NCBI GenBank assembly: GCA_963781585.1
Contig: CAWAGQ010000013.1
Location: 384,001-448,000 of the forward strand
DNA: 64,000 nt
DNA from: an uncultured Gemmatimonadaceae bacterium
GTDB taxonomy: Bacteria > Gemmatimonadota > Gemmatimonadetes > Gemmatimonadales > Gemmatimonadaceae
Reading direction: 5' to 3'
The notes beneath the pieces are model-generated. The model was not told where the DNA came from and did no database searches. It saw nothing but the letters and a program-made list of their open reading frames with translations. Positions 22,479 to 63,474 of the stretch are shown in pieces. The position numbers and the translations under genes were made by a program. The number at the start of each line of letters is the position of its first letter. Within the stretch, counting starts at the first letter, position 1.

Positions 22479-22835
22479 ATGCCCGACCTGAACCAGCAGA
22501 TCCTCCGCGGCACTCTCGACCTGCTCGTGCTCAAGGCATTGAGCGGCGATCCCGCGCACGGCTACGAGATTGCCCGCTGGGTCGAGCGCGCCACCGCCAA
22601 CGCGCTTCGTATCGAGGACGGGTCGCTGTACCCCGCCCTGTACCGCCTCGAGGAGCGCGGCCTGATCGAAGCCGACTGGCGGCTCACCGACGACCGGCGG
22701 CGCGCCAAGTATTACTCGCTCACGGTCTCCGGGCGCCGGCGGCTGCGCGACGAGACGGCGAGCTGGACCCGCTATGCGCGCGCCATCTTCGCGGCGCTCG
22801 AGGTCCCGATGCGGACGCAGCCCGCGAGGGCCTGA
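22479..22835 (+). CDS. PadR-family transcriptional regulator
   Basis: LRGTLDLLVLKAL, HGYEIA, EDGSLYPALYRLEERGLI, RRAKYYSLT. Confidence 0.95.
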   Translation: MPDLNQQILRGTLDLLVLKALSGDPAHGYEIARWVERATANALRIEDGSLYPALYRLEERGLIEADWRLTDDRRRAKYYSLTVSGRRRLRDETASWTRYARAIFAALEVPMRTQPARA

Positions 22836-22837
22836 TC

Positions 22838-25516
22838 ATGCCCGCCCACGATCCGATCTGGCGCCGCTACCTCCGGTTCACGCGTCCCGATCCCCGCGCC
22901 GATGTCGGCGACGAGCTGCGATTCCACTGGGAGGAGCTGGTGCGCCGGTACCGTGCGGAGGGCATGGACCAGGGTGCGGCCGAACGCGCCGCCCGCGCGC
23001 AGTTCGGCGATCTCCAACGCGTGCAACAGGCGCTCGGCGAACGGTCCGTGCAGCAGCAACGGCGTGCCGAACGCGCCGGATGGTGGATGACCCTGCGCTA
23101 CGATGTCCGAGTTGGCGCACGGAAGTTGATCCACCAGCCCGCCTTCAGCATTGCGGCCATCGCCACGCTTGGCCTGGGGATCGGGGCCAACGTTGCCGTG
23201 TTCAGCGTGGTCAATTCGGCGCTCATCCGCCCGCTTCCGTATCCGCAGGCTGATCGCCTGGTTCGACTCTACGAGATGTACAAAGGGCGGCCCTTCACGG
23301 TTTCGCCACCCAATTTCAGCGACTGGCGTGCGCAGGCCCATTCGTTCACCGGCGTGGCGGCGTTCAACAACTTCGCGCGCACGCTCACCGGGTACGGTGA
23401 CCCGCAACCCGTACCGTCGGCATCGGTGACCGAGGACTTCTTCAAGGTGATGGGTGTGCAGCCGATTCGAGGGCGTCCGTTTTCCGCCGGCGAACTCACG
23501 TATGGCCAGACGAACGCCGTCATCCTCTCCGATGGATTGTGGCGCACCACCTTCGGCGCGCGGGAGGATCTCGTTGGCCGGACCCTGCAGCTCGACGGCC
23601 GCGCGTTCGACGTGGTGGGGATCATGCCGCCCGGCTTCGACTACCCCTCCGGGACGAAGCTCTGGACGCCCTGGGCCTTCAGCGCGGACGAACTGGCGAC
23701 GCAGCGTGGCGCGCACTGGCTGAGCGTCGTGGCGCGCCTGACACCTGGTGTGACGCTCGACGCCGCCACCCGGGACGTGGCTGCGATATCGGCGCGTCTC
23801 GCGGAAGCGTACCCGAACACGAACAAGGACGATGGGGCGACGAGTCGGACGCTTCGCGATGCCATGGTGGGGGCGACACCGCGTCGCGCGCTTCTCGTTC
23901 TGCTTGGCGCGGTTGCGCTGGTGGTGCTGATCGCCTGCAGCAACGTGGCCAACCTGCTGCTGGCGCGTGGTGCCGTGCGCCAGCGCGAGCTCGCGACGCG
24001 CGCTGCGCTCGGCGCGCGCCCGCGCGATCTGATCGGCATGGCGCTCACCGAGAGCGTATTGCTGGGGGTGATCGGAGGTGTGGTAGGGTTGGCGGTCGCG
24101 TGGTGGGCGACGAAAGGGCTCGACGCGTTGCGGCCCGACGCGCTCCGGCAGCTCGGGGCCGCGCGGGTGGATCTGACGGTGTTGTTCTTCACGCTTGGTC
24201 TCAGCGTGGCGACCGGGCTGCTGTTCGGGATGGCGCCTGCGCTGCAGGCGGCGCGCGTGGCGAACGTGCACGGCACGCTCCAGGCGGGGGGGCGTGGAGG
24301 GACCATCGGCCGGGCCGGGTGGCGCGTTCGGGGCGGACTCGTGGCCGTGGAGCTGGCACTGGCCGTGATGCTGCTCGTCGGCGCAGGGCTCCTCGTCAGG
24401 AGCTTCTCGCGGCTGCAGAGCGTGTCCCCGGGTTTCGACGGGAAGGGAGTCCTCACGTTCTACCTCTCGTTGCCCGGTCAACGCTACCCGAAGGCCGGGC
24501 AGTCGGAGCAGTTCTACGGGCAGATGCTGGAACGGATCCGCGCGCTTCCGGGGGTGGCGAAAGCGGCGTCGATCAGCGGACTTCCCCTCGACGACTACAA
24601 TTACAGCATCAGTACCCACTCGCTCGACGGTGTGAACATCGAGGCGTCGGAACAACCGTCGACCCAGATCCGGGTCGTGACCGCCGATCTGTTCCAGACG
24701 CTGCACATCCGGCTCCTGCGCGGACGGACGTTCGTCGATACCGACCGCGAGGGCGCGCCTAACGTCGTGGTGATGAACGGCGCGGCGGCGAAGCTGCTGT
24801 TCAATACGACGGATCCGATCGGCCATTCGCTCGAGATCGGGACCGGCTTCGATCTTGGCCGGGGACGCGCCGGTGGGCAGGTGGTGGGGATCGTGGACGA
24901 CGTGCACGACGATGCACTCAGCACGGACCCCCGTCCCACGCTCTATTTCGCGCATGCGCAGTTTCCGCTCACCGACATGGCGATCGTGATCCGGGCTGCG
25001 GCTGGTGTCGATCCGGGTGCGCTCGCGACGCCCGTCCGCGCGCAACTCCGGCTGCTGGATAACGGGCTCCCGATGCTGGGGGTGCGCACCATGGATCGGG
25101 TCGCGCAGCTCTCGGTCGCCCAGCCGCAGTTCGCGATGACGCTGCTCGCCGCGTTCGCGGCCGTTGCCCTGGCGCTGGCGGCGGTCGGGGTATTCGGCGT
25201 GATGAGCTACGTCGTCGGGCAGCGCACGCGGGAAATCGGCGTGCGGATGGCGCTCGGCGCCGATGGGCACCGCGTGGTGGGAGAAACGCTACGTCGGGCA
25301 CTGGCCCCGGTCGTCCTGGGTGTCGTGATCGGGAGCGCGGGTGCGCTGCTGCTGACGGGGACCATGGCCAGCCTGCTCTACGAGGTGACGCCCGGGGACC
25401 CGGTCACGGTGGTCGTGGTGGCCGTGGGCATGGCATTGATCGCAGTCGTGGCCGCCTGGCTACCCGCGCGGCGGGCAAGTCGGGTGGATCCGGTGCTGGC
25501 ACTCAGAAGCGAATGA
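22838..25516 (+). CDS. Duplicated MacB/FtsX-type ABC permease (ADOP-like)
   Basis: Prefix DVGDELRFH...ARAQFGD, TLGLGIGAN, LIACSNVANLLLAR, GVFGVMSYVVGQRTREIGVRMALGA, ends RVDPVLALRSE. Confidence 0.95.
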   Translation: MPAHDPIWRRYLRFTRPDPRADVGDELRFHWEELVRRYRAEGMDQGAAERAARAQFGDLQRVQQALGERSVQQQRRAERAGWWMTLRYDVRVGARKLIHQPAFSIAAIATLGLGIGANVAVFSVVNSALIRPLPYPQADRLVRLYEMYKGRPFTVSPPNFSDWRAQAHSFTGVAAFNNFARTLTGYGDPQPVPSASVTEDFFKVMGVQPIRGRPFSAGELTYGQTNAVILSDGLWRTTFGAREDLVGRTLQLDGRAFDVVGIMPPGFDYPSGTKLWTPWAFSADELATQRGAHWLSVVARLTPGVTLDAATRDVAAISARLAEAYPNTNKDDGATSRTLRDAMVGATPRRALLVLLGAVALVVLIACSNVANLLLARGAVRQRELATRAALGARPRDLIGMALTESVLLGVIGGVVGLAVAWWATKGLDALRPDALRQLGAARVDLTVLFFTLGLSVATGLLFGMAPALQAARVANVHGTLQAGGRGGTIGRAGWRVRGGLVAVELALAVMLLVGAGLLVRSFSRLQSVSPGFDGKGVLTFYLSLPGQRYPKAGQSEQFYGQMLERIRALPGVAKAASISGLPLDDYNYSISTHSLDGVNIEASEQPSTQIRVVTADLFQTLHIRLLRGRTFVDTDREGAPNVVVMNGAAAKLLFNTTDPIGHSLEIGTGFDLGRGRAGGQVVGIVDDVHDDALSTDPRPTLYFAHAQFPLTDMAIVIRAAAGVDPGALATPVRAQLRLLDNGLPMLGVRTMDRVAQLSVAQPQFAMTLLAAFAAVALALAAVGVFGVMSYVVGQRTREIGVRMALGADGHRVVGETLRRALAPVVLGVVIGSAGALLLTGTMASLLYEVTPGDPVTVVVVAVGMALIAVVAAWLPARRASRVDPVLALRSE

Positions 25517-36499: not shown

Positions 36500-38160
36500 C
36501 AGACCGTTTGCAGATACTGGTGGATCATGCTCACGGTGGCTGATCCCTCCCCGACCGCCGCCGCCACGCGCTTGCCCGACCCGTGCCGGGCGTCGCCAGC
36601 CGCAAAAACACCCGGCACACTGGTCTCGAAAAGGAATGGATCGCGCTCCAGCGTCCACGACTTGGGCCACTTGCCGTCGATCATGAGATCGCGCCCGGTG
36701 AGGATGAACCCCTGCTTGTCGCGCTCGACCAGCGCGGACACCATCGCGGTGCGCGGCGCGGTGCCGATGAAGATGAACATCGCGTTGGCCGGCACGTCCC
36801 GCATCTCGCCGGTCTCGACGTTCTTCAGGGTGATTGATTCGAGCCGTCCGTTCCCCCGCACACCGCAGACGACCGTGGAGGTCACCACGTCCACGTTGGC
36901 GGTATCCTGGATCCGGTCCACCAGATACTGCGACATCCCGGCGCTCAGCTTCGGACCCCGCAACAGCATCGTCACCTTGCGTGCATAACGCGAAAAGAAC
37001 ATCGCCCCCTGCCCGGCGGAATTGGCACCGCCCACCACGAACACATCGCAGCCGCGATAGGTGGTCGCTTCGGTCAGCGCCGCGCCGTAGTACACGCCGG
37101 ACCCCACCAGATCGTCCACCCCCGCCGCGTCCAGGCGCCGCACTTCCATTCCCGACGCGATCAGCACCGCGTAGCAACTGAGCTCGGAGCCATCCGACAG
37201 CGTCACGGTGCGGTAGGGGTCATTCCGCCGGATCTCCGTCACGTCCTGCACGGTGAGGATCTCGGCGCCAAAGCGGCGCGCCTGGGTCGTGGCCCGTCGT
37301 GCCAGATCGGCCCCGCTCACTCCGCCCGGGAATCCCAGGTAGTTCTCGATCTGCGAGCTCGTTCCCGCCTGGCCGCCGGGCGCCGTCCGCTCCACCAGGA
37401 TCGTGCGCAGTCCCTCCGACGCGCCGTACACGGCGCCCGCCAGCCCCGCCGGCCCGCCTCCAACCACGACCAGATCATAGAACGGCCGCTGGGGACGCGT
37501 CTGCATGCCGAGCCGCTCGGCGAGCGCTCTGGTGGTGGGTTGCACCAGGGTCGTTCCATCGGCGAAGAACACCACCGGAAGACGCGCCATGCCCTCCTCG
37601 AGCGATGTGACCAGCTCGCGCGCCGACGCATCCGTGTCGAGGTCGACCCACTGGTACGGCACCTGGTTCGATGAAAGAAAGTCCTTTACCACGTAGCTCG
37701 ACGCGGAAAGCGGCGTACCAGCCACTCGGATGCCGTCAAACGGCGGGCGAACTTTCGCCACCCAGTCGGCAAGGAGGTCATCGAGCACCGGGTAGAGTCG
37801 TTCGCTCGGTGGCTCCCACGGTTTCAGCAGGTAGTGGTCCAGGCCGATGCGGTTGATGGCGGTGATGGCCGTTTCGGTATCGGCGTAGGCCGTCAGCAGC
37901 ACGCGTCGTGCGTCGGGGTAGAGCTTGAGTGCCTCCACCAGAAACTGCGTCCCGGTCATTTCGGGCATGCGCTCGTCGACCAGAAAGAGCGCGATCGGGG
38001 CACTGCGCTTCTTCAGCTGACGCACCGTCTCGAGCGCCTGCGGCCCGGAGCCGACCTTGACCACGCGGTAGTCCGCGCGGAAGTGCTGACGCAGGTCGCG
38101 CTCGACGGCATTCAGGACTTCGGGGTCGTCGTCCACGGCGAGAATGACGGGCTTGTTCAT
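36499..38160 (-). CDS. Response-regulator receiver / thioredoxin-reductase-like FAD oxidoreductase fusion
   Basis: ILAVDDD..DERMPEMTG..LLTAY..KPW receiver; GGGPAGL, GGQAGTSSQIENYLGFP, VGGANSAGQGA, FIFIG, FAAGD; YYGAA where TrxR has its CxxC. Confidence 0.93.
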
Positions 38161-38186
38161 ACGGCGATGATCCTGTGGTGGCGACG

Positions 38187-39896
38187 TCAGGGCGCGGCCG
38201 CGGGTGTGGGGTCGGTTGCGGCCCGCGCGACGTGAATCGGCAGCCGGACAATGAAGCGCGTGGAACCCGGCCGCGACTCGACGTCGATGCTGCCGCCGTG
38301 GCGCTTCACCACCACGTTCCGGCTGGTCGACAGTCCGAGCCCGGTTCCCTTGCCGGGTTCCTTGGTAGTGAAGAAGGGATCGAAGATGCACTGGCGCACG
38401 CTTTCGGGCATCCCCGGTCCGTCGTCCTCGACTTCGACGACGACGTGGTCGGAATCCCGGCGCGCCCGCACGATCAGGCGGCCCCGGCCGTTCATCGCGT
38501 CCACGGCGTTGTCGATGAGGTTCGTCCAGACCTGGTTCAACTCGCTTCCGTATGCTTCGATGTGCGGCAGGTCCGGGTCGACTTCGCGCTCCACCGTGAT
38601 GCCCGTTTTCAATTTGCTTCGCAGCATGACGAGCGTGCTGTCAATGCCCTCGACCACGTCCACGAGCCGGACCGGAGCCTGGCCGAGGAACGAGTACGTC
38701 TTGAGGGATTTGACGATCTCGGAGATGCGGCGGGTCGCCTCTTCGATCTCGCGGGCCAGGGCGAGCACGGGTTGAGCGCGGGCGATCCAGGCCACCACGA
38801 CCGCGGTCTCATCACCCCAGTATGCGGCGGCGCGCTCCAGCTCCGCGATATCGTATCCGAGGCTCACCAGGGCGGGGGCGAGCTCCCAGGCGTCGGCGAC
38901 ATTATGGACGTCGAGCCACTCCTCCACCTCGGTCTCGCGGTCGCTGCGGGTGAGGGGATCGATGTAGGACGCCTGGGCCGAGCGCTCGCGGTCATCGCGA
39001 ACGAGGGTGAGCAGCGCGGCCTGGCGCTCGGGCGAGAGGCGCACCTGGGTGAGCGGCACGAACGCATCCTGCAGCTTGGCGAACACCGCGCGCAACTGGT
39101 CGGCGGCCCGGGCCGCGGCCGCCGCCGGGTTGTTCAACTCGTGGGCTACGCCGGCCGCCAGGGTGCCTAACGTCGCCATCTTCTCCGACTGGCGCAGGGC
39201 CTCTTCGGCGGTGCGCAGCAGGGTCACGTCGGCGCCGTAGATGAACACCAGGTTGGCTTCCCTGGCCAGGCGGTGCGCGAACTGGAACGAGCGGCTTCCC
39301 ACTCTGGCCTCGACGCGCACCACGTCGGTCCCGGCCAGGATATGCTGCCAGACTGCATCGGTCAGGCCCGGGCAGAGGTCCTTCCAGCACCGTCCGATCA
39401 GGGTTTCGTCGCCGAACAGCTCGAGCGCCGCCGAGTTGGCGAGCACGATGGTGGCCCCGGCATCCGCGCGGAGCACCGGTCCCGGATTCATCTCCGGGAA
39501 TCGTGCCATCTCGGCGAGCTGCGCCGACTGACGGGCGAGCAGGCGCTCGGCGCGTTTCCGCTCGGTGACGTCGGTGCCGTAGATGAAGATCGAGTCGATC
39601 TCCGGCGGCCGCCGGTAGGTGAACGTGAACGTGCGGTCCCCCACGTCCACCTCCTGGGTGAGTCCGTCCGCTCCGCCCACGACGCGCTGCCAGACCTCCG
39701 GATCCAGGGCCGGGCAGAGCTCGGGCCAGCGCCCGTCGCGGAGGCGCTCGTCCCCGAAGACCGTTCGGGCGGCGGCGTTCACCAGCCGCACGTGCCCATC
39801 CAGGTCGGTGCGGACGACCGGTCCCGGGTTCATCTCCGGGAACGCGGGCATCTCGTTCATGATGCCCTGGTGGGCAGACGGTTCGTTAGGCGGCAT
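38187..39896 (-). CDS. Cytoplasmic sensor histidine kinase with two PAS-like repeats
   Basis: Two FPEMNPGPV...IYG(T/A)DVT repeats, VAHELNNP, LNQVWTNLIDNAVDA, DPFFTTK, GTGLGL. Confidence 0.92.
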   Translation of the reverse strand: MPPNEPSAHQGIMNEMPAFPEMNPGPVVRTDLDGHVRLVNAAARTVFGDERLRDGRWPELCPALDPEVWQRVVGGADGLTQEVDVGDRTFTFTYRRPPEIDSIFIYGTDVTERKRAERLLARQSAQLAEMARFPEMNPGPVLRADAGATIVLANSAALELFGDETLIGRCWKDLCPGLTDAVWQHILAGTDVVRVEARVGSRSFQFAHRLAREANLVFIYGADVTLLRTAEEALRQSEKMATLGTLAAGVAHELNNPAAAAARAADQLRAVFAKLQDAFVPLTQVRLSPERQAALLTLVRDDRERSAQASYIDPLTRSDRETEVEEWLDVHNVADAWELAPALVSLGYDIAELERAAAYWGDETAVVVAWIARAQPVLALAREIEEATRRISEIVKSLKTYSFLGQAPVRLVDVVEGIDSTLVMLRSKLKTGITVEREVDPDLPHIEAYGSELNQVWTNLIDNAVDAMNGRGRLIVRARRDSDHVVVEVEDDGPGMPESVRQCIFDPFFTTKEPGKGTGLGLSTSRNVVVKRHGGSIDVESRPGSTRFIVRLPIHVARAATDPTPAAAP

Positions 39897-44192: not shown

Positions 44193-45868
44193 CCTTCCGC
44201 GCACGGCTCCTCGCCGCATTTACAGCAGCTACCGCGATTCCACTCGTACTGCTGGGGGTCGGGGTGCGTCACCAGCTGCGCTCGCGCCTCGAACTGCAGT
44301 ACCGCCGCCGTGTCGACGCCCAGGTGGCGGTGGCGAGCGAGGATCTGGGACGCCAGTCGGCGGCCATTGCCGATCGTCTCGCCGCGCTCGCCCACGGGGT
44401 GCCCGACGACGACCGCTTCCGCCTGGCTGCGGTGCGTGGCGTGCAGGACGAGCGCCCGTACCTGCTCGACTATGCCGGTCGCGCCATGCGGCTCGCCGGC
44501 CTCTCCATGTTGCAGGTGGAAGACGAACGCGGCCGCATTCTCAGCTCCGGGCACTTTCGCAACGAATTCGACCGGCTGGAACCCGATCTCCCCGCGCTGA
44601 TGTCGCGCGCAAATGGCCAGCCCACACTGGTGCGGGCGCGGGCACCGGATGGACCGCTGCTGGTTCTCGCCCGGGTCGACTCCACGCGGGTAGCCGGGCG
44701 CCGATTCACGCTGGTGGGCGGCGTCGCCGTGGATAGCGTGTTTCTGCGCCGGCTGGCCCGCGACCCGGCGGTCGGCATCGCGCTCGTGGTATCGGGTGAC
44801 AGCGCCACGATATCCGCGCCGCACGCCGTCGTCGCGGAGATCCCACTCGCGTTCATCGATGCGGCGAGTCGGGACGCACCGACGCTCGGCGCGGCCCGCC
44901 TGACGATTACGCAGCCGCTGGGCGATCTCGACGCGCTGCTTGGCAGTGTGAATCGCTGGTTTCTCGCGGCGCTGGCGGGCGCCATCGGCCTGAGTGCGGC
45001 GCTGGCCGCCTGGTTCTCGGCGCGGCTGAGCCGTCCGCTCACGGTTCTCGCCGCTGCCACCGGGCGGATCGAGCTCGACGGCCCCGAGGTGGCCCTCGGG
45101 TTCGATCGCGACGATGAGATCGGGACGCTGGCCAGACGATTGAGCGCGATGGCGACCCGGTTGCGATCGAGCGCCGGACGACTGCGTGCCGCCGAGCGGC
45201 GCGCGACGATCGGCGAAATGGCGCGCCAGGTGAACCACGACATCAAGAACGGGCTGGTTCCGATTCGCAACGTGCTGCGGCATCTGGCGCAGGTGCAGGA
45301 GGAACGGCCCGTCGAGCTGCCGGCCCTGTTCGCCGAACGGCGCAGCACGCTGGAGTCGAGCGTGGCCTACCTTGACACGCTGGCGCGCAACTACGCGCGC
45401 CTGTCTCCCGTTGTGCAACGCACGTGGATGGACGTCAATGCTATCGTCGCCGAGGTGGGGCGCGCCGCCGCGGGCTCCGACGGTGCGCTCGTCGTGTCGG
45501 ATCCGGCTCCCGCTCTTCCCCGGATCTCTGGCGACCCGGTCCTGCTCCGGCGCATTCTCGAGAATCTCGTTCGCAACGGGATCGAGAGTCTGGAGGGCCG
45601 TGCCGGCACGGTCACGCTGCGGACCGCCGGCTCCCCGGACCGGGGCGTGCGGGTCACCGTTGCGGATACCGGTCACGGTATGACGCGCGAGGAGATCGAG
45701 CGCGCGTTCGACGACTTTCACACCACCAGGAAGGGGGGCACCGGACTCGGGCTGTCGGTGGTGCGACGACTCACGGCCGATCTGCAGGGCACGCTTCGAA
45801 TCGAGAGCGAGCCGGGGCGCGGAACGACCGTGGTCCTCGACTTCCCGGGGGCGAGTATGCCCGTGTGA
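44189..45868 (+). CDS. Membrane HAMP sensor histidine kinase (NtrY-like H-box)
   Basis: Two TM segments, RDDEIGTLA HAMP, MARQVNHDIKN, NLVRNGIES, DTGHGM, GTGLGL. Confidence 0.92.
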   Translation: MTFRARLLAAFTAATAIPLVLLGVGVRHQLRSRLELQYRRRVDAQVAVASEDLGRQSAAIADRLAALAHGVPDDDRFRLAAVRGVQDERPYLLDYAGRAMRLAGLSMLQVEDERGRILSSGHFRNEFDRLEPDLPALMSRANGQPTLVRARAPDGPLLVLARVDSTRVAGRRFTLVGGVAVDSVFLRRLARDPAVGIALVVSGDSATISAPHAVVAEIPLAFIDAASRDAPTLGAARLTITQPLGDLDALLGSVNRWFLAALAGAIGLSAALAAWFSARLSRPLTVLAAATGRIELDGPEVALGFDRDDEIGTLARRLSAMATRLRSSAGRLRAAERRATIGEMARQVNHDIKNGLVPIRNVLRHLAQVQEERPVELPALFAERRSTLESSVAYLDTLARNYARLSPVVQRTWMDVNAIVAEVGRAAAGSDGALVVSDPAPALPRISGDPVLLRRILENLVRNGIESLEGRAGTVTLRTAGSPDRGVRVTVADTGHGMTREEIERAFDDFHTTRKGGTGLGLSVVRRLTADLQGTLRIESEPGRGTTVVLDFPGASMPV

Positions 45869-54023: not shown

Positions 54024-54584
54024 TCAGGCGTCCTTGCGCCGCACCGAGCTCCCGAGGAGTTCGAGCGTTCCGCTGACCCCGGCGCAGACGGCGGCCGCGG
54101 CGACGAGCGTGAAGCCGACCTCTCCGAAGCGCAGCCGGGCACCGGCCAGCACCGCCAGGGCGCGAGGGGCATTGGTGGCCAGCAGCAGGATCGCCGCGGT
54201 GGCCAGAATGCCGACCACCCACGTGATCGCGGCTCGTGTCATCGGTGATCGTGGAAGTCGCAGGACCTGGAGGAACAGGGCGGTCACGGCGACCCACAGG
54301 GCCACCGTCAGGGCGGGGTAGGCCAGGCGGAGGCGGGTCGCCGCATCTTCTCCGCCCGCGGCAACCGTGCAGAGCGCCTCGTCTCCCCCCTTCGGCCACC
54401 ACCGGCACGACACGGTGGCGTTCACGGGATCCACCGCCGCGATGCGCTCCATGCCGATCGGCGAAAGGCGAAACATCGCTGCGTCGGGAGTCACCGCCGT
54501 CCCCCAGCCTAACGTAGCTCCCCGCTGCAGGAAGAACGCCGCGAGGGCGATCAGCAGGGCGGCGATTGGACGCGCGAGCTTCAT
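54024..54584 (-). CDS. Hypothetical membrane protein
   Basis: Four hydrophobic segments with a loop containing a Cys pair (CRWWP..LC). Confidence 0.7.
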   Translation of the reverse strand: MKLARPIAALLIALAAFFLQRGATLGWGTAVTPDAAMFRLSPIGMERIAAVDPVNATVSCRWWPKGGDEALCTVAAGGEDAATRLRLAYPALTVALWVAVTALFLQVLRLPRSPMTRAAITWVVGILATAAILLLATNAPRALAVLAGARLRFGEVGFTLVAAAAVCAGVSGTLELLGSSVRRKDA

Positions 54585-56879: not shown

Positions 56880-57332
56880 CTACGCGACCGTGCGCACGTT
56901 CACGCGAACGTCTTCGGTCGCGACCGCGACCGTGCCGTAGAGGGGTCAACGCCTCTTGAATCCCTCGACCAGTGCGGCCGCCTGGTCGTCGTCTGTGCCC
57001 GCAATCTCGAAATCGAGGCGGACCGAGTTGAAGAGCGTCACGTCCGTACGTGACTGCCGGGCACGGTCCAGTACGCCCTCCACGCGAACACTCGCCCGCG
57101 CCAGGGGAACGTTCGTATCGCGCGCGATCACCTGGAGCAGTTCGACCCCGCATGACGCCACCGCGGAGAGAAACACCTCCGGCGGCGTAAGCTCCTCACC
57201 CGGGCAGCCATTCTGCACCGGACCATCGACGATGAAGTGATGATCCCGCGCGCTGCACAGGACGCGGCCGAGGGTGTCGGTGGAGCTCGCGTGGACCAGA
57301 TACTCGCGAATGGTGGTCGCTGGCGCGTTCAT
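56880..57332 (-). CDS. OsmC/Ohr-family protein, predicted selenoprotein (UGA at 56948-56946 read as Sec129)
   Basis: TPPEVFLSAVASC61 first catalytic motif. Reading through TGA gives FKRR-U-PLYGTVAVATEDVRVNVRTVA-TAG, restoring the C-P motif and last helix/strand; hairpin follows the UGA. Confidence 0.85.
56915..56932 (-). promoter_or_regulatory. Candidate bacterial SECIS hairpin
   Basis: mRNA sense: UGA-CCCCUCUACGGCA-CGGUCGC-GGUC-GCGACCG; 7-bp stem, loop starting GGU, 20 nt after the UGA. Confidence 0.7.
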
Positions 57333-57366
57333 GTGACGTGACTCCGGGTTGTGGGCAGACATTGCA

Positions 57367-57864
57367 TCAGTCGAACTCCCGTCGCGGCGCTGATTGCTCT
57401 GGTCCCACTCGCCCCACAGCGATCTCCGCGCGGAAGTAGTTCTCGCCGCGCACCGGCACACCGGCCAGGCGGCGCAGCAGCGTGATCTGTCCCACATGCG
57501 TGAGGGCATCGGCGATCGGGCCCTGGAAGAGTGCCCCCGCCGGACACGCGAGCGCCTCAGCGGAGGCGAGAAACGCGTCCAGCGCCGAGAGCCCGACGAA
57601 CAACCGATCGACGCCGTCGCTCCACGGAAGTGGGTCGGAATCCTTCCACACCTGTTGGCCGCGTCCGAGCCAGATGGCCCAGTCCAGCAAGTCGCCGATG
57701 TGGGCGAGAATCTGACCAGGTGTCCGGGTGGACGGGCCGACCTGAAACGTGGCGAACGAATCCGGTGCGCCGCGTACCGCCTTGGCACCACGATACGCCA
57801 GGGTGGCGACGGTGTGGCGGAGTAGCCGCCGTGCGGCGTCGTCGCGCGCGTGGGCGTCGCTCAT
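57367..57864 (-). CDS. DinB-like four-helix-bundle protein
   Basis: LRHTVATLAYRG, RTPGQILAHIGDL, QGPIADALTHVGQI..LRR, VRGENYF. Confidence 0.8.
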   Translation of the reverse strand: MSDAHARDDAARRLLRHTVATLAYRGAKAVRGAPDSFATFQVGPSTRTPGQILAHIGDLLDWAIWLGRGQQVWKDSDPLPWSDGVDRLFVGLSALDAFLASAEALACPAGALFQGPIADALTHVGQITLLRRLAGVPVRGENYFRAEIAVGRVGPEQSAPRREFD

Positions 57865-58818: not shown

Positions 58819-60621
58819 GTGCGCCCAACCGACGTCAGCAATCCGAAGTATTACCACAAGGTCGTCGACTGCCAGTGGGCATGTCCGGCGCACACCAACG
58901 TCCCCGAGTACATCCGGCTCATCGCCCAGGGACGTTACACCGACGCGTACATGCTCAACCGGGAATCGAACGTCTTTCCGGGAATACTCGGGCGCACCTG
59001 TGATCGCCCGTGCGAGCCGGCCTGTCGGCGCGGGCGGGTGGACGGCAAGCCGGTGGCCATCTGTCGGCTGAAGCGGGTCGCCGCCGATCTGCGCGATGAG
59101 TTCCGGCATCTGTTGCCGCCGATCCCGCCGGACAGGAACGGGAAGCGCGTGGCCCTGGTCGGCGCGGGACCGGCGTCGCTGACGGTCGCCAACGATCTCA
59201 TGCCGTTAGGCTACGAGTGCGTCATCTTCGAAAAGCTGTCGCGCCCCGGCGGATTGATGCGCATCAACATCCCGTCGTTCCGGCTGCCGGCCGCGGTGCT
59301 GGATGAGGAGGTGGACGTCATCCTGACGATGGGCGTCGATATCCGGTATGACGCGCCGATCGCGAGCATGAGGGCGCTGCTCGACCAGGAGTTCGACGCG
59401 GTCTTTGTCGGAAGCGGGGCGCCGAAGGGGAAGGAACTCGAGGTCCCTGGCCGGCACGACACCGACCGGGTCCACATTGGTATCGAGTGGCTGGCCAGTG
59501 TCCATTTCGGACACGTCGACGCCATCGGCCAGCGGGTCCTGATCATCGGCGTGGGGAACACCGCCATGGATTGTTGCCGGACGTCGAAGCGGCTGGGGGC
59601 CACCGACGTGAAAGTCATGGCGCGGCGGACGCGCCAGTACTTCAAGGCGTCGCCGTGGGAGCTCGAGGATGCCGAGGAAGAGCAGGTGCAGATCATCGAG
59701 AACCACGCCCCGAAGCGCTTTCTGGTCGAGCAGGGCCGTCTGGTCGGGATGGAGTTCGAGCAGCTGCGCTGGACGCGCGCGGCCGACGGACGGCAGAAGA
59801 GCGAAGCGGTGGGCACGGTGACCATTCCCTGCGACGACGTCATCCTTGCCATCGGGCAGGAGAACGCCTTTCCGTGGATCGAACGCGATATCGGCGTGGA
59901 ATTCGACGAGCACGACATGCCGGTGGTGGATCGCATCACCTTCCAGAGTACGCGACCCGGTGTGTTCTTCGGCGGCGATGCGGCCTGGGGACCCGAGAAC
60001 ATCATCTGGGCGGTGGAGCATGGGCACCAGGCGGCCATCTCCATCCACAACCATTGTATGGGGATGCCGGTGGACGACCGCCCCGGGCAGGGGATGACCC
60101 TCGCGAGCGTGAAGCTCGGAATGCACGCCTGGCAGTACAGCAACGACTACAACCCGGCGCCGCGCCAGAAGATGATCCACGCCGACCTCGAGAAGCGGTT
60201 TGCGCGCCTGTCGGTGGAGGTCGAGCTGGGATTCACGCCGGAACAGGTGACGCGGGAGGTGGAGCGCTGCCTCAATTGCGACATCGAGACCGATTTCACC
60301 GCCGGGTTGTGCATCGAGTGCGACGCCTGCATCGACGTCTGCCCGGTCAACTGCCTGACGATTGCGCCGGATGGGGAGGAGGCCGATCTGCGCGCGCGTC
60401 TGTCGGCCCCGGCCGGGAATGTCGACCAGGACCTCTACGTGTCGGCGGCGCTGCCGCAGACCCGGCGGGTGATGGTGAAGGACGAGGACATCTGCCTGCA
60501 TTGCGGCCTCTGCGCCGAGCGCTGTCCGACCGCCGCGTGGGACATGAAGCAGTTCCAGCTGGTGCTGCCCTACGCAGGAAACGCCGCCGGCGGTCAGCTG
60601 ACGGTGCTTGGTCAACCCTGA
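58819..60621 (+). CDS. GltD-like FAD/NAD(P) oxidoreductase with C-terminal 2x[4Fe-4S] ferredoxin domain
   Basis: CQWACP, GRTCDRPCEPAC, GAGPASL, GVGNTAMDC, CLNC, CIECDACIDVCP, CLHCGLCAERCP. Confidence 0.93.
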   Translation: MRPTDVSNPKYYHKVVDCQWACPAHTNVPEYIRLIAQGRYTDAYMLNRESNVFPGILGRTCDRPCEPACRRGRVDGKPVAICRLKRVAADLRDEFRHLLPPIPPDRNGKRVALVGAGPASLTVANDLMPLGYECVIFEKLSRPGGLMRINIPSFRLPAAVLDEEVDVILTMGVDIRYDAPIASMRALLDQEFDAVFVGSGAPKGKELEVPGRHDTDRVHIGIEWLASVHFGHVDAIGQRVLIIGVGNTAMDCCRTSKRLGATDVKVMARRTRQYFKASPWELEDAEEEQVQIIENHAPKRFLVEQGRLVGMEFEQLRWTRAADGRQKSEAVGTVTIPCDDVILAIGQENAFPWIERDIGVEFDEHDMPVVDRITFQSTRPGVFFGGDAAWGPENIIWAVEHGHQAAISIHNHCMGMPVDDRPGQGMTLASVKLGMHAWQYSNDYNPAPRQKMIHADLEKRFARLSVEVELGFTPEQVTREVERCLNCDIETDFTAGLCIECDACIDVCPVNCLTIAPDGEEADLRARLSAPAGNVDQDLYVSAALPQTRRVMVKDEDICLHCGLCAERCPTAAWDMKQFQLVLPYAGNAAGGQLTVLGQP

Positions 60622-62422
60622 CGTGATCAACGACTTCTGCTTCAAGATCGCGACCGTGAACGGCACCGGCTCCGCCAGTGCCAACGGACTCCTCATGCAG
60701 GCGATCTTCCGCATGGGAATCCCGGTGGTCGGGAAGAATGTCTTTCCGTCGAACATCCAGGGTCTGCCCACCTGGTACGAGATCCGGGTGAACAAGGACG
60801 GCTACACGGCCCGGACCGCCCCGTTCGATCTCATGGTGGCGATGAATCCGTCCACCTACGCGCGGGACGTGGCCGACATCCGTCCCAGCGGCTGGCTGCT
60901 CTACGACTCCTCGTGGCCGATGCCGAAGGAACTGCTGCGCGACGACGTCATCGTGCTGGGCGTCCCATTCGGCCAGATGTGCAACGAGACGTTCCAGGGC
61001 GATCGCGAGCGCACGCTGATGAAGAACATCGCCTGCGCGGGCGCGCTGGCGGCGCTGCTCGACATCGACATGGACGTGGTCCAGGAGATGCTGGAGGAGA
61101 AGTTCGCCCGCAAGAAGAGCCTGCTCGAGTCGAACCACAAGGCGATCCGGCTCGGCTACGACTACGCGACGGCGCACTTCGCCTGTCCACTGCCGATCCG
61201 TCTGGAGCGCATGGACGCCACCAGGGACAATATCCTGATCGACGGCAACACGGCCGCCGCGTTAGGCTGTGTCTACGCCGGCGCCACCGTCGGCGCCTGG
61301 TATCCGATCACCCCGGCCACCTCGCTGATGGAGAACTTCAAGGCCTTCTGCGAGCGTTTCCGTGTGGAACCGGAGACCGGCAAGCGCAGATTCTGTATCG
61401 TGCAGGCGGAAGACGAGCTGGCCGCGGCCGGAATCGTCATCGGCGCCGGCTGGATGGGTGCCCGTGCCTTCACGCCCACCGCCGGGCCGGGCATCTCGCT
61501 CATGAGCGAGTTCGTCGGCCTCGCGTATTACGCCGAGGTCCCGGCTGTGTTCTTCGATGTGCAGCGCACCGGCCCGTCCACCGGCATGCCGACGCGCACC
61601 CAGCAGGCCGACCTCCTCTCGATCGCGTTCCTCTCCCACGGCGACACGCGCCACATCGCCCTCTTCCCGTCGTCGCCCGAAGACTGCTTCTACATGGCGG
61701 GCCAGGCCTTCGACCTGGCCGAGCGATTCCAGACCCCGGTGTTCGTGGTCTCCGACCTGGATATCGGGATGAACGACTGGATGTGCCGGCGCCTCACCTG
61801 GGACGACAGCTATCGACCCGATCGCGGCAAGGTCCTGTCGGCCGAAGAGCTCGACCAGCTCCCGCGGTTCTACCGATACCTGTCGAACAACGGCGACGGT
61901 GTGGCGGCCCGCACACTTCCAGGCGTCCACCCCAAGGGAGCGTATTTCACGCGGGGGTCGGGGCACAACAAGTTCGGCGCGTACACCGAGGACGACGCCG
62001 AGTACCGGGAGGTCGTCGACCGGCTGGCCCGCAAGCTCGACGCGGCGGCGCGGGCCGTGCCTGAGCCGGAGATCATCCGGCAGGACGGCGCGGAAGTCGG
62101 CGTGATCACGATCGGGAGTTGCCGCGGCGCGGTGCTCGAGGGACTCGACCGGCTGCGCGAACGCGGTGTCGCACTCGACTTCATGCGCGTCCGGGCGTTC
62201 CCGTTCGGTCCGGCCGTGCTCTCGTTCGTGCACTCGCACGAGCGGTGCATCGTGATCGAGCAGAATCGTGACGGACAGCTCCGGTCACTCCTGCTGCTCG
62301 ACAGCGGGGTGGCGGGAGAACGGCTGCTCTCGGTGCGCGACTACGGTGGATTCCCGCTCGGCACCAATCGTGTCATTGAAGGCATCGTGGGCGAGCTCGA
62401 AGGAGTGGGAGTGCACGCATGA
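60608..62422 (+). CDS. korA: 2-oxoacid:acceptor oxidoreductase alpha subunit (gamma-alpha fusion)
   Basis: NGTGSAS, YPITP, QAEDELAA, TAGPGISLMSE, QRTGPSTGMPTRTQQAD, EQNRDGQ. Confidence 0.92.
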   Translation: MVNPDVINDFCFKIATVNGTGSASANGLLMQAIFRMGIPVVGKNVFPSNIQGLPTWYEIRVNKDGYTARTAPFDLMVAMNPSTYARDVADIRPSGWLLYDSSWPMPKELLRDDVIVLGVPFGQMCNETFQGDRERTLMKNIACAGALAALLDIDMDVVQEMLEEKFARKKSLLESNHKAIRLGYDYATAHFACPLPIRLERMDATRDNILIDGNTAAALGCVYAGATVGAWYPITPATSLMENFKAFCERFRVEPETGKRRFCIVQAEDELAAAGIVIGAGWMGARAFTPTAGPGISLMSEFVGLAYYAEVPAVFFDVQRTGPSTGMPTRTQQADLLSIAFLSHGDTRHIALFPSSPEDCFYMAGQAFDLAERFQTPVFVVSDLDIGMNDWMCRRLTWDDSYRPDRGKVLSAEELDQLPRFYRYLSNNGDGVAARTLPGVHPKGAYFTRGSGHNKFGAYTEDDAEYREVVDRLARKLDAAARAVPEPEIIRQDGAEVGVITIGSCRGAVLEGLDRLRERGVALDFMRVRAFPFGPAVLSFVHSHERCIVIEQNRDGQLRSLLLLDSGVAGERLLSVRDYGGFPLGTNRVIEGIVGELEGVGVHA

Positions 62423-63474
62423 CATCGATCACCAAGCCACGGGTCCACCATCCGTCCCTCAAGCAGAACGCGCTCGGGCTCACGCGGCGCGATTACGAGG
62501 GATCGATGTCGACCCTCTGCGCCGGGTGCGGACATGACTCGATCACCGCAGCCATCGTCCAGGCGTTCTGGGAGCTGGAGATCCCGCCGCACCGGGTGGC
62601 GAAGCTCAGCGGCATCGGCTGCTCGTCGAAGACCCCGGCGTATTTCGTCTCGCAGGCGCACGGGTTCAATTCGGTGCATGGGCGCATGCCGGCGGTGGCC
62701 ACCGGCGCCAACGCCGCCCATCGCGATCTCTACTACATCGGGATCTCGGGGGACGGCGATTCGCTGTCGATCGGGCTGGGCCAGATGTGCCATGCCATTC
62801 GGCGCAACGTGCGGCTGGTGTACGTGCTGGAGAACAACGGCGTCTACGGCCTCACCAAGGGACAGTTCTCCGCCTCCGCCGACGTCGGCTCGAAATCGAA
62901 GAAGGGTGAGCCCAACGTGCAGACGCCAATCGACCCGGTTCTGCTCGGCCTCACCCTCGGCGCCACGTTCGTCGCCCGCAGCTTCTCGGGCGACAAGGCC
63001 CAGCTGGTCCCGATCCTGAAGGCCGCATTGCGTCACGGCGGGTTCGCGCTGGTGGACGTCATCTCGCCGTGCGTCACCTTCAACGATCACGAAGCGTCCA
63101 CCAAGAGCTACCTCTACACGCGACAGCACTACCACGAGGTGGCAGCGGTGGACTTCGTGCCGCTCCGGCGGGAGATCACCGCCTCATATGGAGATGGCGA
63201 TACACGCGTCGTCACGATGCACGACGGCAGCGTCGTCAAGTTCCGCAAGCTCGCCCCTGACTACGATCCGACCGATCGCGAGGCCGCATACCATTTCGTC
63301 CGGCGGGCGCACGAGAACGGCGAGGTGGTGACCGGCCTGCTCTACATCGATGAGACGGGAGCGGACATGCACGCCGTCAACAAGTCGTCCGACACGCCGC
63401 TGGTCGAGCTACCGTATGAAGCGCTCTGTCCGGGGAGTGCCGCCCTCGCGACACTGATGGAGGAGTTCCGGTGA
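62419..63474 (+). CDS. korB: 2-oxoacid:ferredoxin oxidoreductase beta subunit
   Basis: LCAGCGH, SGIGCSS, VHGRMP, GDGD TPP-binding motif, NNGVYGLTKGQFS, SPCVTFN. Confidence 0.93.
   Translation: MTSITKPRVHHPSLKQNALGLTRRDYEGSMSTLCAGCGHDSITAAIVQAFWELEIPPHRVAKLSGIGCSSKTPAYFVSQAHGFNSVHGRMPAVATGANAAHRDLYYIGISGDGDSLSIGLGQMCHAIRRNVRLVYVLENNGVYGLTKGQFSASADVGSKSKKGEPNVQTPIDPVLLGLTLGATFVARSFSGDKAQLVPILKAALRHGGFALVDVISPCVTFNDHEASTKSYLYTRQHYHEVAAVDFVPLRREITASYGDGDTRVVTMHDGSVVKFRKLAPDYDPTDREAAYHFVRRAHENGEVVTGLLYIDETGADMHAVNKSSDTPLVELPYEALCPGSAALATLMEEFR

Follow-up and report, generated by a model that had tools for sequence, protein, structure and literature searches.

The window, that is, the whole stretch of 64 kb of DNA that was analyzed, carries on its minus strand an OsmC-like open reading frame that would ordinarily be taken to end at a TGA codon placed directly before a proline codon. 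The question raised by this locus is whether that TGA terminates the protein or is read as selenocysteine (Sec). An earlier note on this DNA had proposed the second possibility, a hidden selenoprotein of the OsmC/Ohr family with Sec in place of the resolving cysteine and a SECIS-like hairpin downstream of the TGA.

Organization of the OsmC-like gene

Analysis of the region revealed the following features, all of them on the minus strand:

57342..57345, minus strand: GGAG, a possible ribosome-binding site by its sequence, 9 nt 5′ of the ATG
56880..57332, minus strand: full candidate selenoprotein coding sequence with an OsmC/Ohr-superfamily domain, 150 codons plus TAG, translated with TGA as U
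57150..57152, minus strand: codon 61, TGC (Cys), the first conserved cysteine, at the peroxidatic position of Ohr
56946..56948, minus strand: in-frame TGA, codon 129, proposed Sec, directly after ...VEGFKRR
56883..56945, minus strand: 21-codon tail after the proposed Sec, PLYGTVAVATEDVRVNVRTVA, corresponding to the final helix and strand of the OsmC fold
56915..56932, minus strand: SECIS-like hairpin within the coding sequence, stem of 7 bp (56932-56926 with 56921-56915), loop GGUC (56925-56922)
56880..56882, minus strand: true stop codon TAG, read from the minus strand

The ATG of the OsmC-like frame was located at 57332-57330, and the homologs start in the same way as the protein of the window (M..P..TIREY). 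Every coordinate of the reading frame proposed earlier, with the UGA at codon 129 directly before Pro and a read-through product of 150 aa, was confirmed, and so was the 7-bp hairpin CGGTCGC-GGTC-GCGACCG with its loop 20 nt past the UGA. The commonest ordinary stop in these 64 kb is TGA, with which 23 of the 43 open reading frames end. The prediction that gene callers would truncate such genes was borne out in the databases, where the lengths on file are 125-139 aa for an entry 94% identical to the protein of the window and for 43 further close relatives; these 44 short proteins end at ...F-K-[RK]-R.

Exchange of TGA and cysteine codons at position 129

The best 120 protein matches were inspected at the position corresponding to codon 129, and 44 of them were found to stop exactly there, 75 to carry Cys (followed by Pro) and one to carry W. 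Among the full-length close matches, Cys was present at this position in 75 of 76. Since position 129 is otherwise strictly Cys, this distribution is the signature of a Sec/Cys exchange. The comparison of TGA with TGC/TGT at codon 129, suggested in the earlier note as a check, gave TGA in 73 of 80 species-representative loci and TGC in the remaining seven (L012, L029, L040, L048, L060, L062 and L069). The conservation of the tail, also suggested as a check, extended to all of these loci, with P-[LI]-[YF]-G-[TS] in frame in 80 of 80 and a tail length of 18-27 codons. In the codons that follow the TGA, the first and second positions were near-invariant and the third positions were variable (entropy of 0.58-1.84 bits); this concentration of the variation at third codon positions is the pattern expected of translated sequence.

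The search was also carried to more distant proteins. In a library clustered at 50% identity, 31 of the best 150 representatives ended at the codon-129 point, down to 36% identity, those of 36-50% identity being seen as protein sequences only; another 45 of the same 150 carried the C-P motif, and the remaining 74 were fragments or other forms. The Sec and Cys forms interconvert at least two to four times on the family tree, without other changes at the active site. OsmC-like forms with the TGA are spread over at least five phyla and dozens of species, their hosts being mostly soil Gemmatimonadaceae and Acidobacteriota. Altogether, these data indicate that the gene almost certainly belongs to a widespread group of soil bacterial genes with Sec at the second active-site cysteine.

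A conserved hairpin downstream of the TGA codon

The hairpin of the window is formed by the arms CGGTCGC (56932-56926) and GCGACCG (56921-56915), which enclose the loop GGTC (56925-56922). On its own it has a folding energy of −12.0 kcal/mol, and it is included in the minimum free energy (MFE) structure of the 51 nt located 3′ of the UGA. The local fold of 81 nt of the window sequence was not better than that of shuffled sequences (z = −0.16), a value that makes fold statistics from a single sequence uninformative; the MFE structure of these 81 nt engages a second copy of CGGTCGC (56889-56883) that is specific to the window and absent from the other loci. In this window of 68% G+C, 23 of 1339 TGA triplets (1.7%) precede a perfect 7-bp hairpin that obeys the spacing and loop rule. 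The hairpin by itself is therefore unexceptional, a single sequence can at most be suggestive, and the weight of the argument rests on conservation in other genomes.

Such conservation was evident among the TGA sequences. The hairpin was retained in 74 of 74, with a stem of 6-7 bp, a loop [G/A]-G-U-[C/U] and a start 13-14 nt past the UGA. In these sequences 96.3% of the stem cells were paired, a level that none of 500 shuffles matched and that compares with 17-58% in slid controls, and the six inner stem pairs were always paired. Compensatory changes were observed at three stem pairs, namely a replacement of G-C by A-U in 14 sequences and exchanges between C-G and G-C, and RNAalifold recovered the same helix. 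The loop was GGUC in 65 and AGUU in 9 of the 74 sequences, with G-U invariant at loop positions 2-3. In addition, synonymous sites appeared frozen within the hairpin, where third-codon entropy was 0-0.54 bits as compared with 0.58-1.84 bits outside it.

On the contrary, the hairpin was largely lost in the seven TGC loci, in which 30 of 49 stem cells were paired, GGTC was kept in a single locus, and hairpin energies ranged from −2.0 to −9.4 kcal/mol, in comparison with −8.4 to −12.1 kcal/mol for the TGA loci. The peptide A-V-A encoded by the hairpin was present in 74 of 74 Sec-type sequences and in 7 of 75 Cys-type proteins. It has to be noted that part of the stem comes free with the peptide, since the codons for T-V-A-V-A-T are partly self-complementary at high G+C, and the TGC loci still pair 61% of their stem cells.

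The element was compared with known bacterial SECIS elements. As in the SECIS of the fdhF type from E. coli, it consists of a short hairpin within the open reading frame, just 3′ of the UGA, with an invariant G-U in the loop. The loop of the fdhF SECIS is also GGUC. The stem starts 13-14 nt past the UGA here and 11 nt past it in the fdhF type, and the loop G-U falls at positions 25-26 instead of 23-24 (with the U of UGA taken as position 1). Unlike in fdhF-type elements, no bulged U is evident, U20 being invariant but paired. In PMC8659212, the determinants of the E. coli SECIS are given as the loop G-U. The published bSECIS model describes a loop of 3-9 nt, a stem of 4-16 bp, a G in the first two loop positions, a distance from UGA to loop of 16-37 nt and an MFE of at most −7.5 kcal/mol (PMC13188914). 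The hairpin of the window, for which a bacterial SECIS had been claimed, agrees with these rules, having a GGUC loop of 4 nt, a 7-bp stem, 20 nt between UGA and loop and an energy of −12.0 kcal/mol. The TGA shared among genomes, the in-frame conservation of the tail and the covarying hairpin all support the hidden-selenoprotein reading, and the locus very probably encodes a genuine selenoprotein, a member of the OsmC/Ohr superfamily recoded through the SECIS-like hairpin.

Fold and active-site residues

The Pfam OsmC domain (PF02566) was detected over residues 45-136 with 46.3 bits (cut-off of 27.5; E = 5.9e-12). An AlphaFold2 model was obtained with a mean pLDDT of 83.6, in which the tail adopts a helix (130-138) and a strand (141-149) with pLDDT values of 94-97. 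With Foldseek, 57 matches in the PDB had E ≤ 0.001; those listed were without exception structures of the OsmC, Ohr or YhfA type, with TM values of about 0.5-0.6 for what is the monomer of a swapped dimer.

The assignment of C61 as the peroxidatic position and of codon 129 as the resolving one, put forward in the earlier note, agreed with the alignment of the family profile to Ohr 9jxc/9jx6 (E = 6e-6), which places C61 on the first Ohr cysteine and position 129 on the cysteine of the "CPY" motif. Residues R23, E52, C61 and C/U129 were invariant in 120 of 120 close matches and in 44 of 44 distant relatives aligned. E52 lies in an aligned P-E motif, and the equivalence of R23 to the Ohr arginine is by position and invariance only, the alignment to Ohr beginning at residue 43. 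Two further cysteines of the close subfamily, C43 (invariant) and C26 (near-invariant), are situated within or close to a loop modeled with low confidence (pLDDT below 50 at residues 35-45), and they are left unexplained by a simple two-residue cycle.

Relationship to Ohr and to known OsmC-like selenoproteins

The fold is held in common with the Ohr proteins of Xylella fastidiosa (PDB 1ZB8/4XX2) and Acinetobacter (9jx6/9jxc). Ohr is described with a peroxidatic Cys61, a resolving Cys125, Arg19 and Glu51 (PMC5962072), and residue numbering in the protein of the window nearly coincides with these X. fastidiosa residues. The protein has an invariant Glu nine residues N-terminal of C61 and an invariant G-R near residue 23, and its flexible loop ahead of helix 1 corresponds to the Gly-rich loop of Ohr (residues 33-48). 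It differs from Ohr in having Sec, as proposed, instead of the resolving Cys, and also in an additional invariant C43 (Q-N-G-C-P-G-E-E) within the loop that is Gly-rich in Ohr, in the near-invariant C26 and in an H-H pair.

None of the curated subfamily models compared reached its cut-off with the protein of the window. The scores were 23.8 bits for the Ohr model TIGR03561 (cut-off of 88.85) and 12.1 bits for the OsmC model TIGR03562 (cut-off of 85.8). The best-scoring NCBIfam model for this protein and its relatives was NF041052, "OsmC-related (seleno)protein", with 35.6 bits for the protein of the window, below the cut-off of 95, and 39 diverse relatives likewise all fell short of 95, with 53.4 as their best score. 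A search seeded with P0201, the relative closest to NF041052, gave five proteins, none of them named as a selenoprotein.

An OsmC-like selenoprotein has been catalogued from the Sargasso Sea/GOS data, belonging to the COG1765 YhfA type and having the motif UxxT (PMC1088965; PMC2398784; PMC13188914). It shares with the protein of the window the PF02566 domain, a Sec/Cys pair and a bacterial SECIS within the open reading frame. As stated in the earlier note, its Sec occupies the place of the attacking Cys, at U40 of 137 in the sequence U-L-L-T, with the second Cys kept (PMC1088965 supplement). The arrangement is the reverse here, with Cys at the first site (C-G-V-E) and Sec at the second (U-P-L-Y-G-T). 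The 2026 catalogue of 119 prokaryotic selenoprotein families in PMC13188914 treats differing Sec positions as separate subfamilies and contains, for OsmC-like proteins, the UxxT form only. The suggestion of a distinct subfamily is upheld by this placement of Sec at the second cysteine as opposed to the first, and the group is, on sequence grounds, a new Sec-position subfamily of a known fold.

Sec machinery, gene neighbors and other TGA codons

No selA, selB or selD was found among the 43 open reading frames of the window in an NCBIfam scan. ARAGORN detected no tRNA-Sec in the 64-kb window, a tRNA scan of the 80 loci, which took in as much as 10 kb to either side, gave none either, and Rfam at gathering thresholds gave no matches over the whole window. 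Regular expressions for the G1 box of a SelB-like GTPase and for an N-terminal SelD motif, a weak test based on two short motifs, had no match in the window or the 80 loci. Conserved gene neighbors were likewise absent, the largest real cluster occurring in 19 of 81 loci and at varying positions, so that no operon partner hints at the reductant. An upstream open reading frame of 165 aa (57367-57864) had no Pfam or NCBIfam match and recurs in six loci.

The window was also scanned for other in-frame TGA codons in coding sequence of high GC3, and a hairpin was present at 2 of the 25 candidates. The TGA at 25514-25516 was rejected as a Sec candidate, because it is an ordinary stop and the stem behind it resembles a terminator. 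The TGA at 44598-44600 was the second hairpin-bearing candidate of that scan. The GC3 filter misses the OsmC-like gene itself, the upstream extension of which lowers GC3, and is therefore a poor detector.

Proposed decoding and catalytic mechanism

By analogy with the established bacterial mechanism, SelB with Sec-tRNA(Sec) would bind the hairpin within the open reading frame and deliver Sec to the UGA, and the ribosome would then continue to the TAG at 56882-56880, giving a 150-residue protein. Homology to Ohr suggests that this protein would act as a two-residue hydroperoxide reductase. The thiolate of C61, activated by the invariant E52 and probably also by the invariant R23, would attack the peroxide with formation of a sulfenic acid, which the selenolate of Sec129 would resolve into a Cys61-S-Se-Sec129 selenenylsulfide. 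This bond may then be reduced by a thiol or dithiol donor, a function carried out in Ohr by a lipoylated protein. The presence of Sec at the resolving position would speed both resolution, with C61 guarded from over-oxidation, and re-reduction. On the basis of this likeness to Ohr, we lean slightly toward Sec129 being the resolving rather than the attacking residue. A mechanistically distinct class of Ohr-like peroxidases, cycling through a Cys-S-Se-Sec selenenylsulfide by virtue of a Sec at the resolving position, is proposed more tentatively, and we regard it as possible but doubtful.

Alternative explanations

An error of sequencing or assembly, or a nonsense mutation private to one genome, is refuted by the presence of the same TGA in 73 of 80 independently assembled genomes, which rules out the private mutation that the earlier note had named as fatal to its proposal. 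Public annotation follows another course and treats 44 of the 120 matches as proteins of about 128 aa, as if the TGA, a normal stop in the window, were here a true one that leaves a truncated OsmC-like protein of 128 residues, or a pseudogene, with untranslated sequence downstream. We consider this extremely improbable: all 73 TGA loci keep the tail in frame, with the third-position variation typical of coding sequence, the tail forms the last helix and strand of the fold (pLDDT of 94-97), and a true stop would mean that dozens of species, belonging to at least five phyla, have lost the second active-site residue although purifying selection acts on the remainder of the protein. It is also very improbable that near-cognate or suppressor decoding inserts one of the standard amino acids (Trp, Cys or Gly) at the UGA, the hairpin being then a stimulator of read-through only. 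The residues W in P0004 and Y in P0257 at position 129, both with a Sec-type tail, would fit such decoding, as would the failure to find Sec machinery either in the 64-kb window or around the 80 loci. However, the W of P0004 is most simply explained by a gene caller using a table with TGA as Trp, the position is Cys in 75 of 76 full-length close matches and Trp or Gly could not substitute for a redox residue, the hairpin fits the SelB-type model including the invariant G-U of the loop, and TGA is the commonest ordinary stop of the window.

With Sec accepted at position 129, the roles of the two residues might be reversed, so that a low-pKa Sec129 selenolate attacks the peroxide or another substrate and the selenenic acid is then resolved by C61. 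In most redox selenoproteins, it is Sec that serves as the primary nucleophile. Sec generally lies in a redox-active motif and usually originates from the replacement of a catalytic Cys, and the pKa of the selenol is 5.2 as compared with 8.3 for the thiol (PMC13188914); moreover, the two residues of Ohr share one pocket, as follows from the direct bond between both described in PMC5962072. We nevertheless judge the reversal to be unlikely, since the Sec and Cys forms alike keep invariant equivalents of the Ohr residues that activate the first cysteine (E52, and by position R23), no replacement of C61 occurs, and the interconversions of Sec and Cys, at least two to four and without any other change at the active site, are easier to understand if position 129 keeps one role.

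Significance of a probable Sec at the second active-site position

In public databases, the genes with TGA currently appear as OsmC-like proteins of about 128 residues, without the second active-site residue and the last two elements of secondary structure. The extent of this misannotation is given by 44 of the 120 closest matches, 73 of the 80 species loci and 31 of the best 150 representatives at 50% identity, and no curated NCBIfam model reaches its cut-off for the group with Sec at the second cysteine. The conserved 18-nt hairpin with its G-U loop constitutes a clean example of a SECIS and could help to find further selenoprotein genes in Gemmatimonadota and Acidobacteriota.

Gemmatimonadota and Acidobacteriota are generally regarded as aerobic. 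According to the current view, aerobes rarely keep selenoproteins (PMC13188914), and Sec is thought to be mainly a trait of anaerobes. The use of Sec in Gemmatimonadota was not documented in the literature searched, including PMC8318568 and PMC4807772, and soil Gemmatimonadaceae and Acidobacteriota were not described there as Sec users; a literature search on OsmC-related, NF041052 or OsmC-family selenoproteins found nothing relevant.

Nearly all catalogued redox selenoproteins have Sec as the attacking residue, and the natural Sec/Cys pairs at the resolving position make the question of why Sec is used testable at a different catalytic step. Should the Ohr-like proteins with a resolving Sec prove to be a distinct class, they would allow the benefit of Sec at a redox position that does not attack to be studied in a natural setting. 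In that case, given that these soil lineages are regarded as aerobic and that aerobes rarely keep selenoproteins, this gene could be a main reason for the retention of the Sec trait in Gemmatimonadota and Acidobacteriota.

Reading frame of the OsmC gene

The minus-strand sequence was read with TGA translated as Sec (U), and all the coordinates reported for the gene in an earlier note on this DNA, which had proposed an OsmC/Ohr selenoprotein with Sec at the resolving Cys, were confirmed. The features of the gene are as follows:

57332, minus strand: start codon ATG (sequence read)
About 57255-57257, 57237-57242 and 57204-57206, minus strand: codons of C26, H31-H32 and C43, respectively
57152-57150, minus strand: Cys61 codon, TGC (sequence read, TGA=U translation)
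56948-56946, minus strand: in-frame TGA, codon 129, after ...VEGFKRR and immediately before Pro
3' of the TGA, minus strand: 21 sense codons, PLYGTVAVATEDVRVNVRTVA (TGA=U translation)
56932-56926, 56925-56922 and 56921-56915, minus strand: hairpin arm CGGTCGC, loop GGTC and arm GCGACCG
56882-56880, minus strand: stop codon TAG, total 150 residues

Pfam detects an OsmC-family domain in the read-through protein (PF02566; 46.3 bits, cut-off 27.5). As TGA serves as the ordinary stop of 23 of the 43 ORFs in the window, the genome has not reassigned this codon.

The hairpin loop begins 20 nt 3' of the TGA, and the hairpin, which folds by itself at -12.0 kcal/mol, also appears in the MFE fold computed for the 51 nt 3' of the UGA. 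The G+C content of the window is 68%, and a perfect 7-bp hairpin with the same spacing and loop rule follows 23 of its 1339 TGA triplets (1.7%); the 81-nt fold was no better than that of shuffled sequence (z = -0.16). In this single sequence, the combination of TGA and hairpin is only suggestive. A second CGGTCGC copy (56883-56889, minus strand), located immediately 5' of the TAG, is able to pair with the 3' arm of the hairpin and is employed in the 81-nt MFE structure. This copy is missing from the other loci and is therefore probably fortuitous; competition between it and the SECIS is conceivable in this genome.

Sec and Cys forms among protein relatives

Among the best 120 matches in a collection of 5.8 billion proteins, 44 were 125-139 residues long and stopped at ...F-K-[RK]-R, precisely one residue short of the TGA of the window gene, including an entry 94% identical to the window protein; 75 continued with C-P-[LI]-[YF]-G, and one had W at position 129. 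The 44 endings together with the 75 Cys residues at position 129 have, at the level of sequence, the classical signature of a Sec/Cys pair, and the filing of those 44 matches as 125-139-residue proteins bears out the claim that standard gene callers shorten the gene. At the Sec position, P0004 has W and P0257 has Y, both proteins keeping the Sec-type TVAVAT tail; the W in P0004 is probably the product of a gene caller using a TGA=Trp table.

A 50%-identity representative library yielded 462 relatives at E <= 1e-3 and 214 at E <= 1e-10. In the best 150 of these 462, 31 ended at the TGA point at the protein level (lowest identity to the query, 36%), 45 had the C-P motif and 74 were fragments or other forms. 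The same best 150 included 16 proteins in which OsmC-like domains are repeated in tandem, two to four per chain of 205-714 residues (P0124, P0141, P0147, P0149-P0153, P0163, P0165, P0170, P0172, P0184, P0225, P0237 and P0259), each domain with its own C-P-[IVLM]-[YFH] motif (four in P0124). These proteins are a multi-domain branch of the family.

Conservation of the TGA and of the tail in other genomes

A scan of species-representative genomes gave 217 relatives. The analysis covered the best 80, a set enriched for the Sec type because this type supplied most sequences of the query alignment. In line with the earlier note, codon 129 was TGA in 73 of these 80 loci and TGC in seven (L012, L029, L040, L048, L060, L062 and L069), and the tail was conserved in frame; 14 of the 80 loci, all of them TGA, were recovered by a relaxed motif search only. 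Every one of the 73 TGA codons was followed by an in-frame P-[LI]-[YF]-G-[TS]-[VI]-A-V-A-x and by a true stop 18-27 codons downstream. First and second codon positions after the TGA were almost invariant, whereas third positions outside the hairpin varied (0.58-1.84 bits of entropy), which indicates that the post-TGA sequence is selected as protein. A private mutation or a base-call error is excluded by the sharing of the TGA among 73 of the best 80 of 217 loci.

According to their record titles, the TGA loci belong to Gemmatimonadota (55), Acidobacteriota (10), Chloroflexota (2), Pseudomonadota (2) and Actinomycetota (1), with one labelled Thermoplasmatota and two unplaced. Locus L078 (DASPXQ010000224.1, 2480 bp) comes from a MAG labelled as a Thermoplasmata archaeon and has a bacterial-type SECIS within the ORF; this short contig is most likely mis-binned.

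A conserved and covarying SECIS-type hairpin

We aligned the 51 nt from the TGA in 74 TGA sequences (73 distinct). Helix pairing was retained in 96.3% of cells, a value reached by none of 500 shuffles, and fell to 17-58% when the 3' arm was slid by 1-3 columns; the six inner stem pairs were unbroken in 74/74 sequences, and RNAalifold independently predicted the same 6-bp helix. Two-sided changes were found at three stem pairs: one pair changed from G-C to A-U in 14 sequences, another was A-U or C-G, and the outer pair showed a G-C swap. The loop was GGUC in 65 sequences and AGUU in nine, its first and fourth positions covarying (G..C to A..U) around an invariant G and U at positions 2-3. GGUC is also the loop of the E. 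coli fdhF SECIS.

Entropy at third codon positions was 0-0.54 bits within the hairpin vs 0.58-1.84 outside, so the RNA holds the synonymous sites fixed. Part of the pairing could come from the T-V-A-V-A-T codons, which are in part self-complementary, and the seven TGC loci served as a control for this. In these loci, 30 of 49 stem cells were paired, the GGTC loop was kept in one, and hairpin energies ranged from -2.0 to -9.4 kcal/mol, vs -8.4 to -12.1 for the Sec type. In addition, the A-V-A peptide was present in all 74 Sec-type sequences vs 7 of 75 Cys-type proteins. The weaker hairpin of the TGC loci and the near confinement of A-V-A to the Sec type indicate that the RNA constrains the peptide and not the reverse.

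The SECIS-like character of the hairpin was upheld, as it agrees on all four points with the bacterial model in the literature (loop of 3-9 nt with G in its first two positions, stem of 4-16 bp, spacing of 16-37 nt and MFE <= -7.5 kcal/mol; PMC13188914), besides being conserved and covarying in the 74 TGA sequences. In the E. coli SECIS, as described in the available text of PMC8659212, the upper stem starts 11 nt after the UGA and the loop carries G23 and U24. A loop G-U defines both elements, whereas that of the window family lies at positions 25-26 and a bulged U is not evident.

Predicted position of Sec in the active site

The family profile matched the solved Ohr structures 9jxc/9jx6 (E = 6e-6) as well as OsmC-like structures, with C61 on the first Cys and position 129 on the Cys of C-P-Y; single-sequence alignments were weaker. 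This alignment agrees with the earlier assignment of C61 as the peroxidatic Cys and of codon 129 to the resolving position. All the listed structure matches of the AlphaFold2 model (mean pLDDT 83.6; residues 35-45 below 50) were of OsmC/Ohr/YhfA type. The peroxidatic residue of Ohr, Cys61, makes up the catalytic triad with Arg19 and Glu51; its sulfenic acid is resolved by Cys125 into a disulfide within the molecule, and reduction is carried out by lipoylated proteins (PMC5962072). R23, E52, C61 and C/U129 were invariant in 120/120 close matches and in the 44/44 more distant relatives aligned, E52 being aligned to the Ohr Glu and R23 equivalent to the Ohr Arg by position only.

The close subfamily has in addition an invariant C43 (Q-N-G-C-P-G-E-E), C26 in 114/120 and H31-H32. 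The loop bearing C43, modelled at pLDDT below 50, corresponds to a Gly-rich, mobile loop in Ohr. The wider family lacks all these residues, which places them outside the core mechanism; a third site, for redox chemistry or metal binding, could be built from them.

As in other bacterial selenoprotein genes, the hairpin would be bound by SelB carrying Sec-tRNA(Sec), which would decode the UGA. By homology, C61 would attack the hydroperoxide, Sec129 would resolve C61-SOH into a selenenylsulfide, and a thiol or dithiol donor would reduce the C61-Sec129 bond. Selenols have a low pKa and high nucleophilicity (PMC13188914, available text), a chemistry that would speed resolution and re-reduction and make C61 less prone to over-oxidation. 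The chief alternative is a reversal of roles, in which Sec129 attacks and C61 resolves. However, the Sec and Cys forms share an invariant apparatus for activating the first Cys, and Sec and Cys have replaced each other at least 2-4 times across the family tree with no accompanying changes; the tree, a quick one with many unresolved forks (121 rows x 128 columns), gave four Sec/Cys changes vs a shuffled mean of 37. For these reasons, the resolving role is favoured for Sec129.

Comparison with known OsmC selenoproteins

A 2026 catalogue that recognizes 119 families and subfamilies of selenoproteins in prokaryotes, and treats differing Sec positions as separate subfamilies, has in the text consulted a single OsmC entry, "OsmC-like protein, PF02566, UxxT" (PMC13188914), which is also present in PMC9312934, PMC2398784, PMC1976440 and PMC1088965. 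The Sargasso Sea OsmC-like protein has Sec at residue 40 of 137 (U-L-L-T, after a helix-1 context) and keeps the second Cys (PMC1088965 supplement), which places its Sec at the first Cys, as the earlier note had stated for known OsmC-like selenoproteins. In contrast to the UxxT form, the first site of the window protein is a Cys (C-G-V-E), and Sec is predicted at its second site (U-P-L-Y-G-T). The nearest NCBIfam model, NF041052 "OsmC-related (seleno)protein", scored 35.6 against a cut-off of 95, which none of 39 diverse relatives reached, and the window protein was far below the cut-offs of the subfamily models for Ohr and for OsmC. Full-text searches on OsmC and selenoproteins did not reveal any account of an OsmC form with Sec at the second Cys, and no documentation of Sec use in Gemmatimonadota was found in the literature searched. 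The groundwater MAG survey of Deng et al. 2026, cited in PMC13188914, is reported to give new, unvalidated candidates.

Gene neighbourhood and other genes of the window

Searches of the 64-kb window and of the sequence flanking the 80 loci found no selA, selB, selD or tRNA-Sec gene, and no conserved neighbour of the OsmC gene pointed to a reductant. The surrounding and other genes are listed below:

57367-57864, minus strand: 165-aa ORF ending 35 nt upstream of the OsmC start codon
54691-56829, minus strand: hybrid histidine kinase, 712 aa, with two receiver domains, PAS, HisKA and HATPase
54024-54584, minus strand: 186-aa ORF, no Pfam or NCBIfam match
36502-38391, minus strand: fusion of a response-regulator receiver, a weak glutaredoxin-like stretch and a thioredoxin-reductase-like flavoprotein
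7768-10356, minus strand, and 22479-25516, plus strand: two ADOP-family duplicated permeases
58819-63474, plus strand: NAD(P)-binding Fe-S flavoprotein (glutamate-synthase small-subunit-like), then 2-oxoacid:acceptor oxidoreductase alpha and beta

The 165-aa ORF, which has no Pfam or NCBIfam match and recurs as a neighbour in only six other loci, is probably co-transcribed with the OsmC gene. The 186-aa ORF, separated from the OsmC gene by the hybrid kinase in the window, immediately follows it in six other loci. The fusion protein has an unusual domain combination (TIGR01292, 232.6 bits, under the cut-off of 343) and adjoins a histidine kinase (38190-39896), and one of the two permeases is preceded by a PadR regulator of acidobacterial type. 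The permeases are consistent with an origin of the window in Gemmatimonadota or Acidobacteriota.

Conclusions

The gene has a UGA at a conserved Cys position, a translated tail and a conserved SECIS-type hairpin. The observation made in the earlier note was confirmed, and its selenoprotein interpretation is supported by the conserved TGA/Cys exchange, the tail and the hairpin. On comparative genomic evidence, the window OsmC gene is a real, unannotated selenoprotein gene, and it belongs to a sizeable, taxonomically broad OsmC/Ohr subfamily with Sec predicted at the resolving-Cys position, which is of relevance for selenoprotein biology and for genome annotation.
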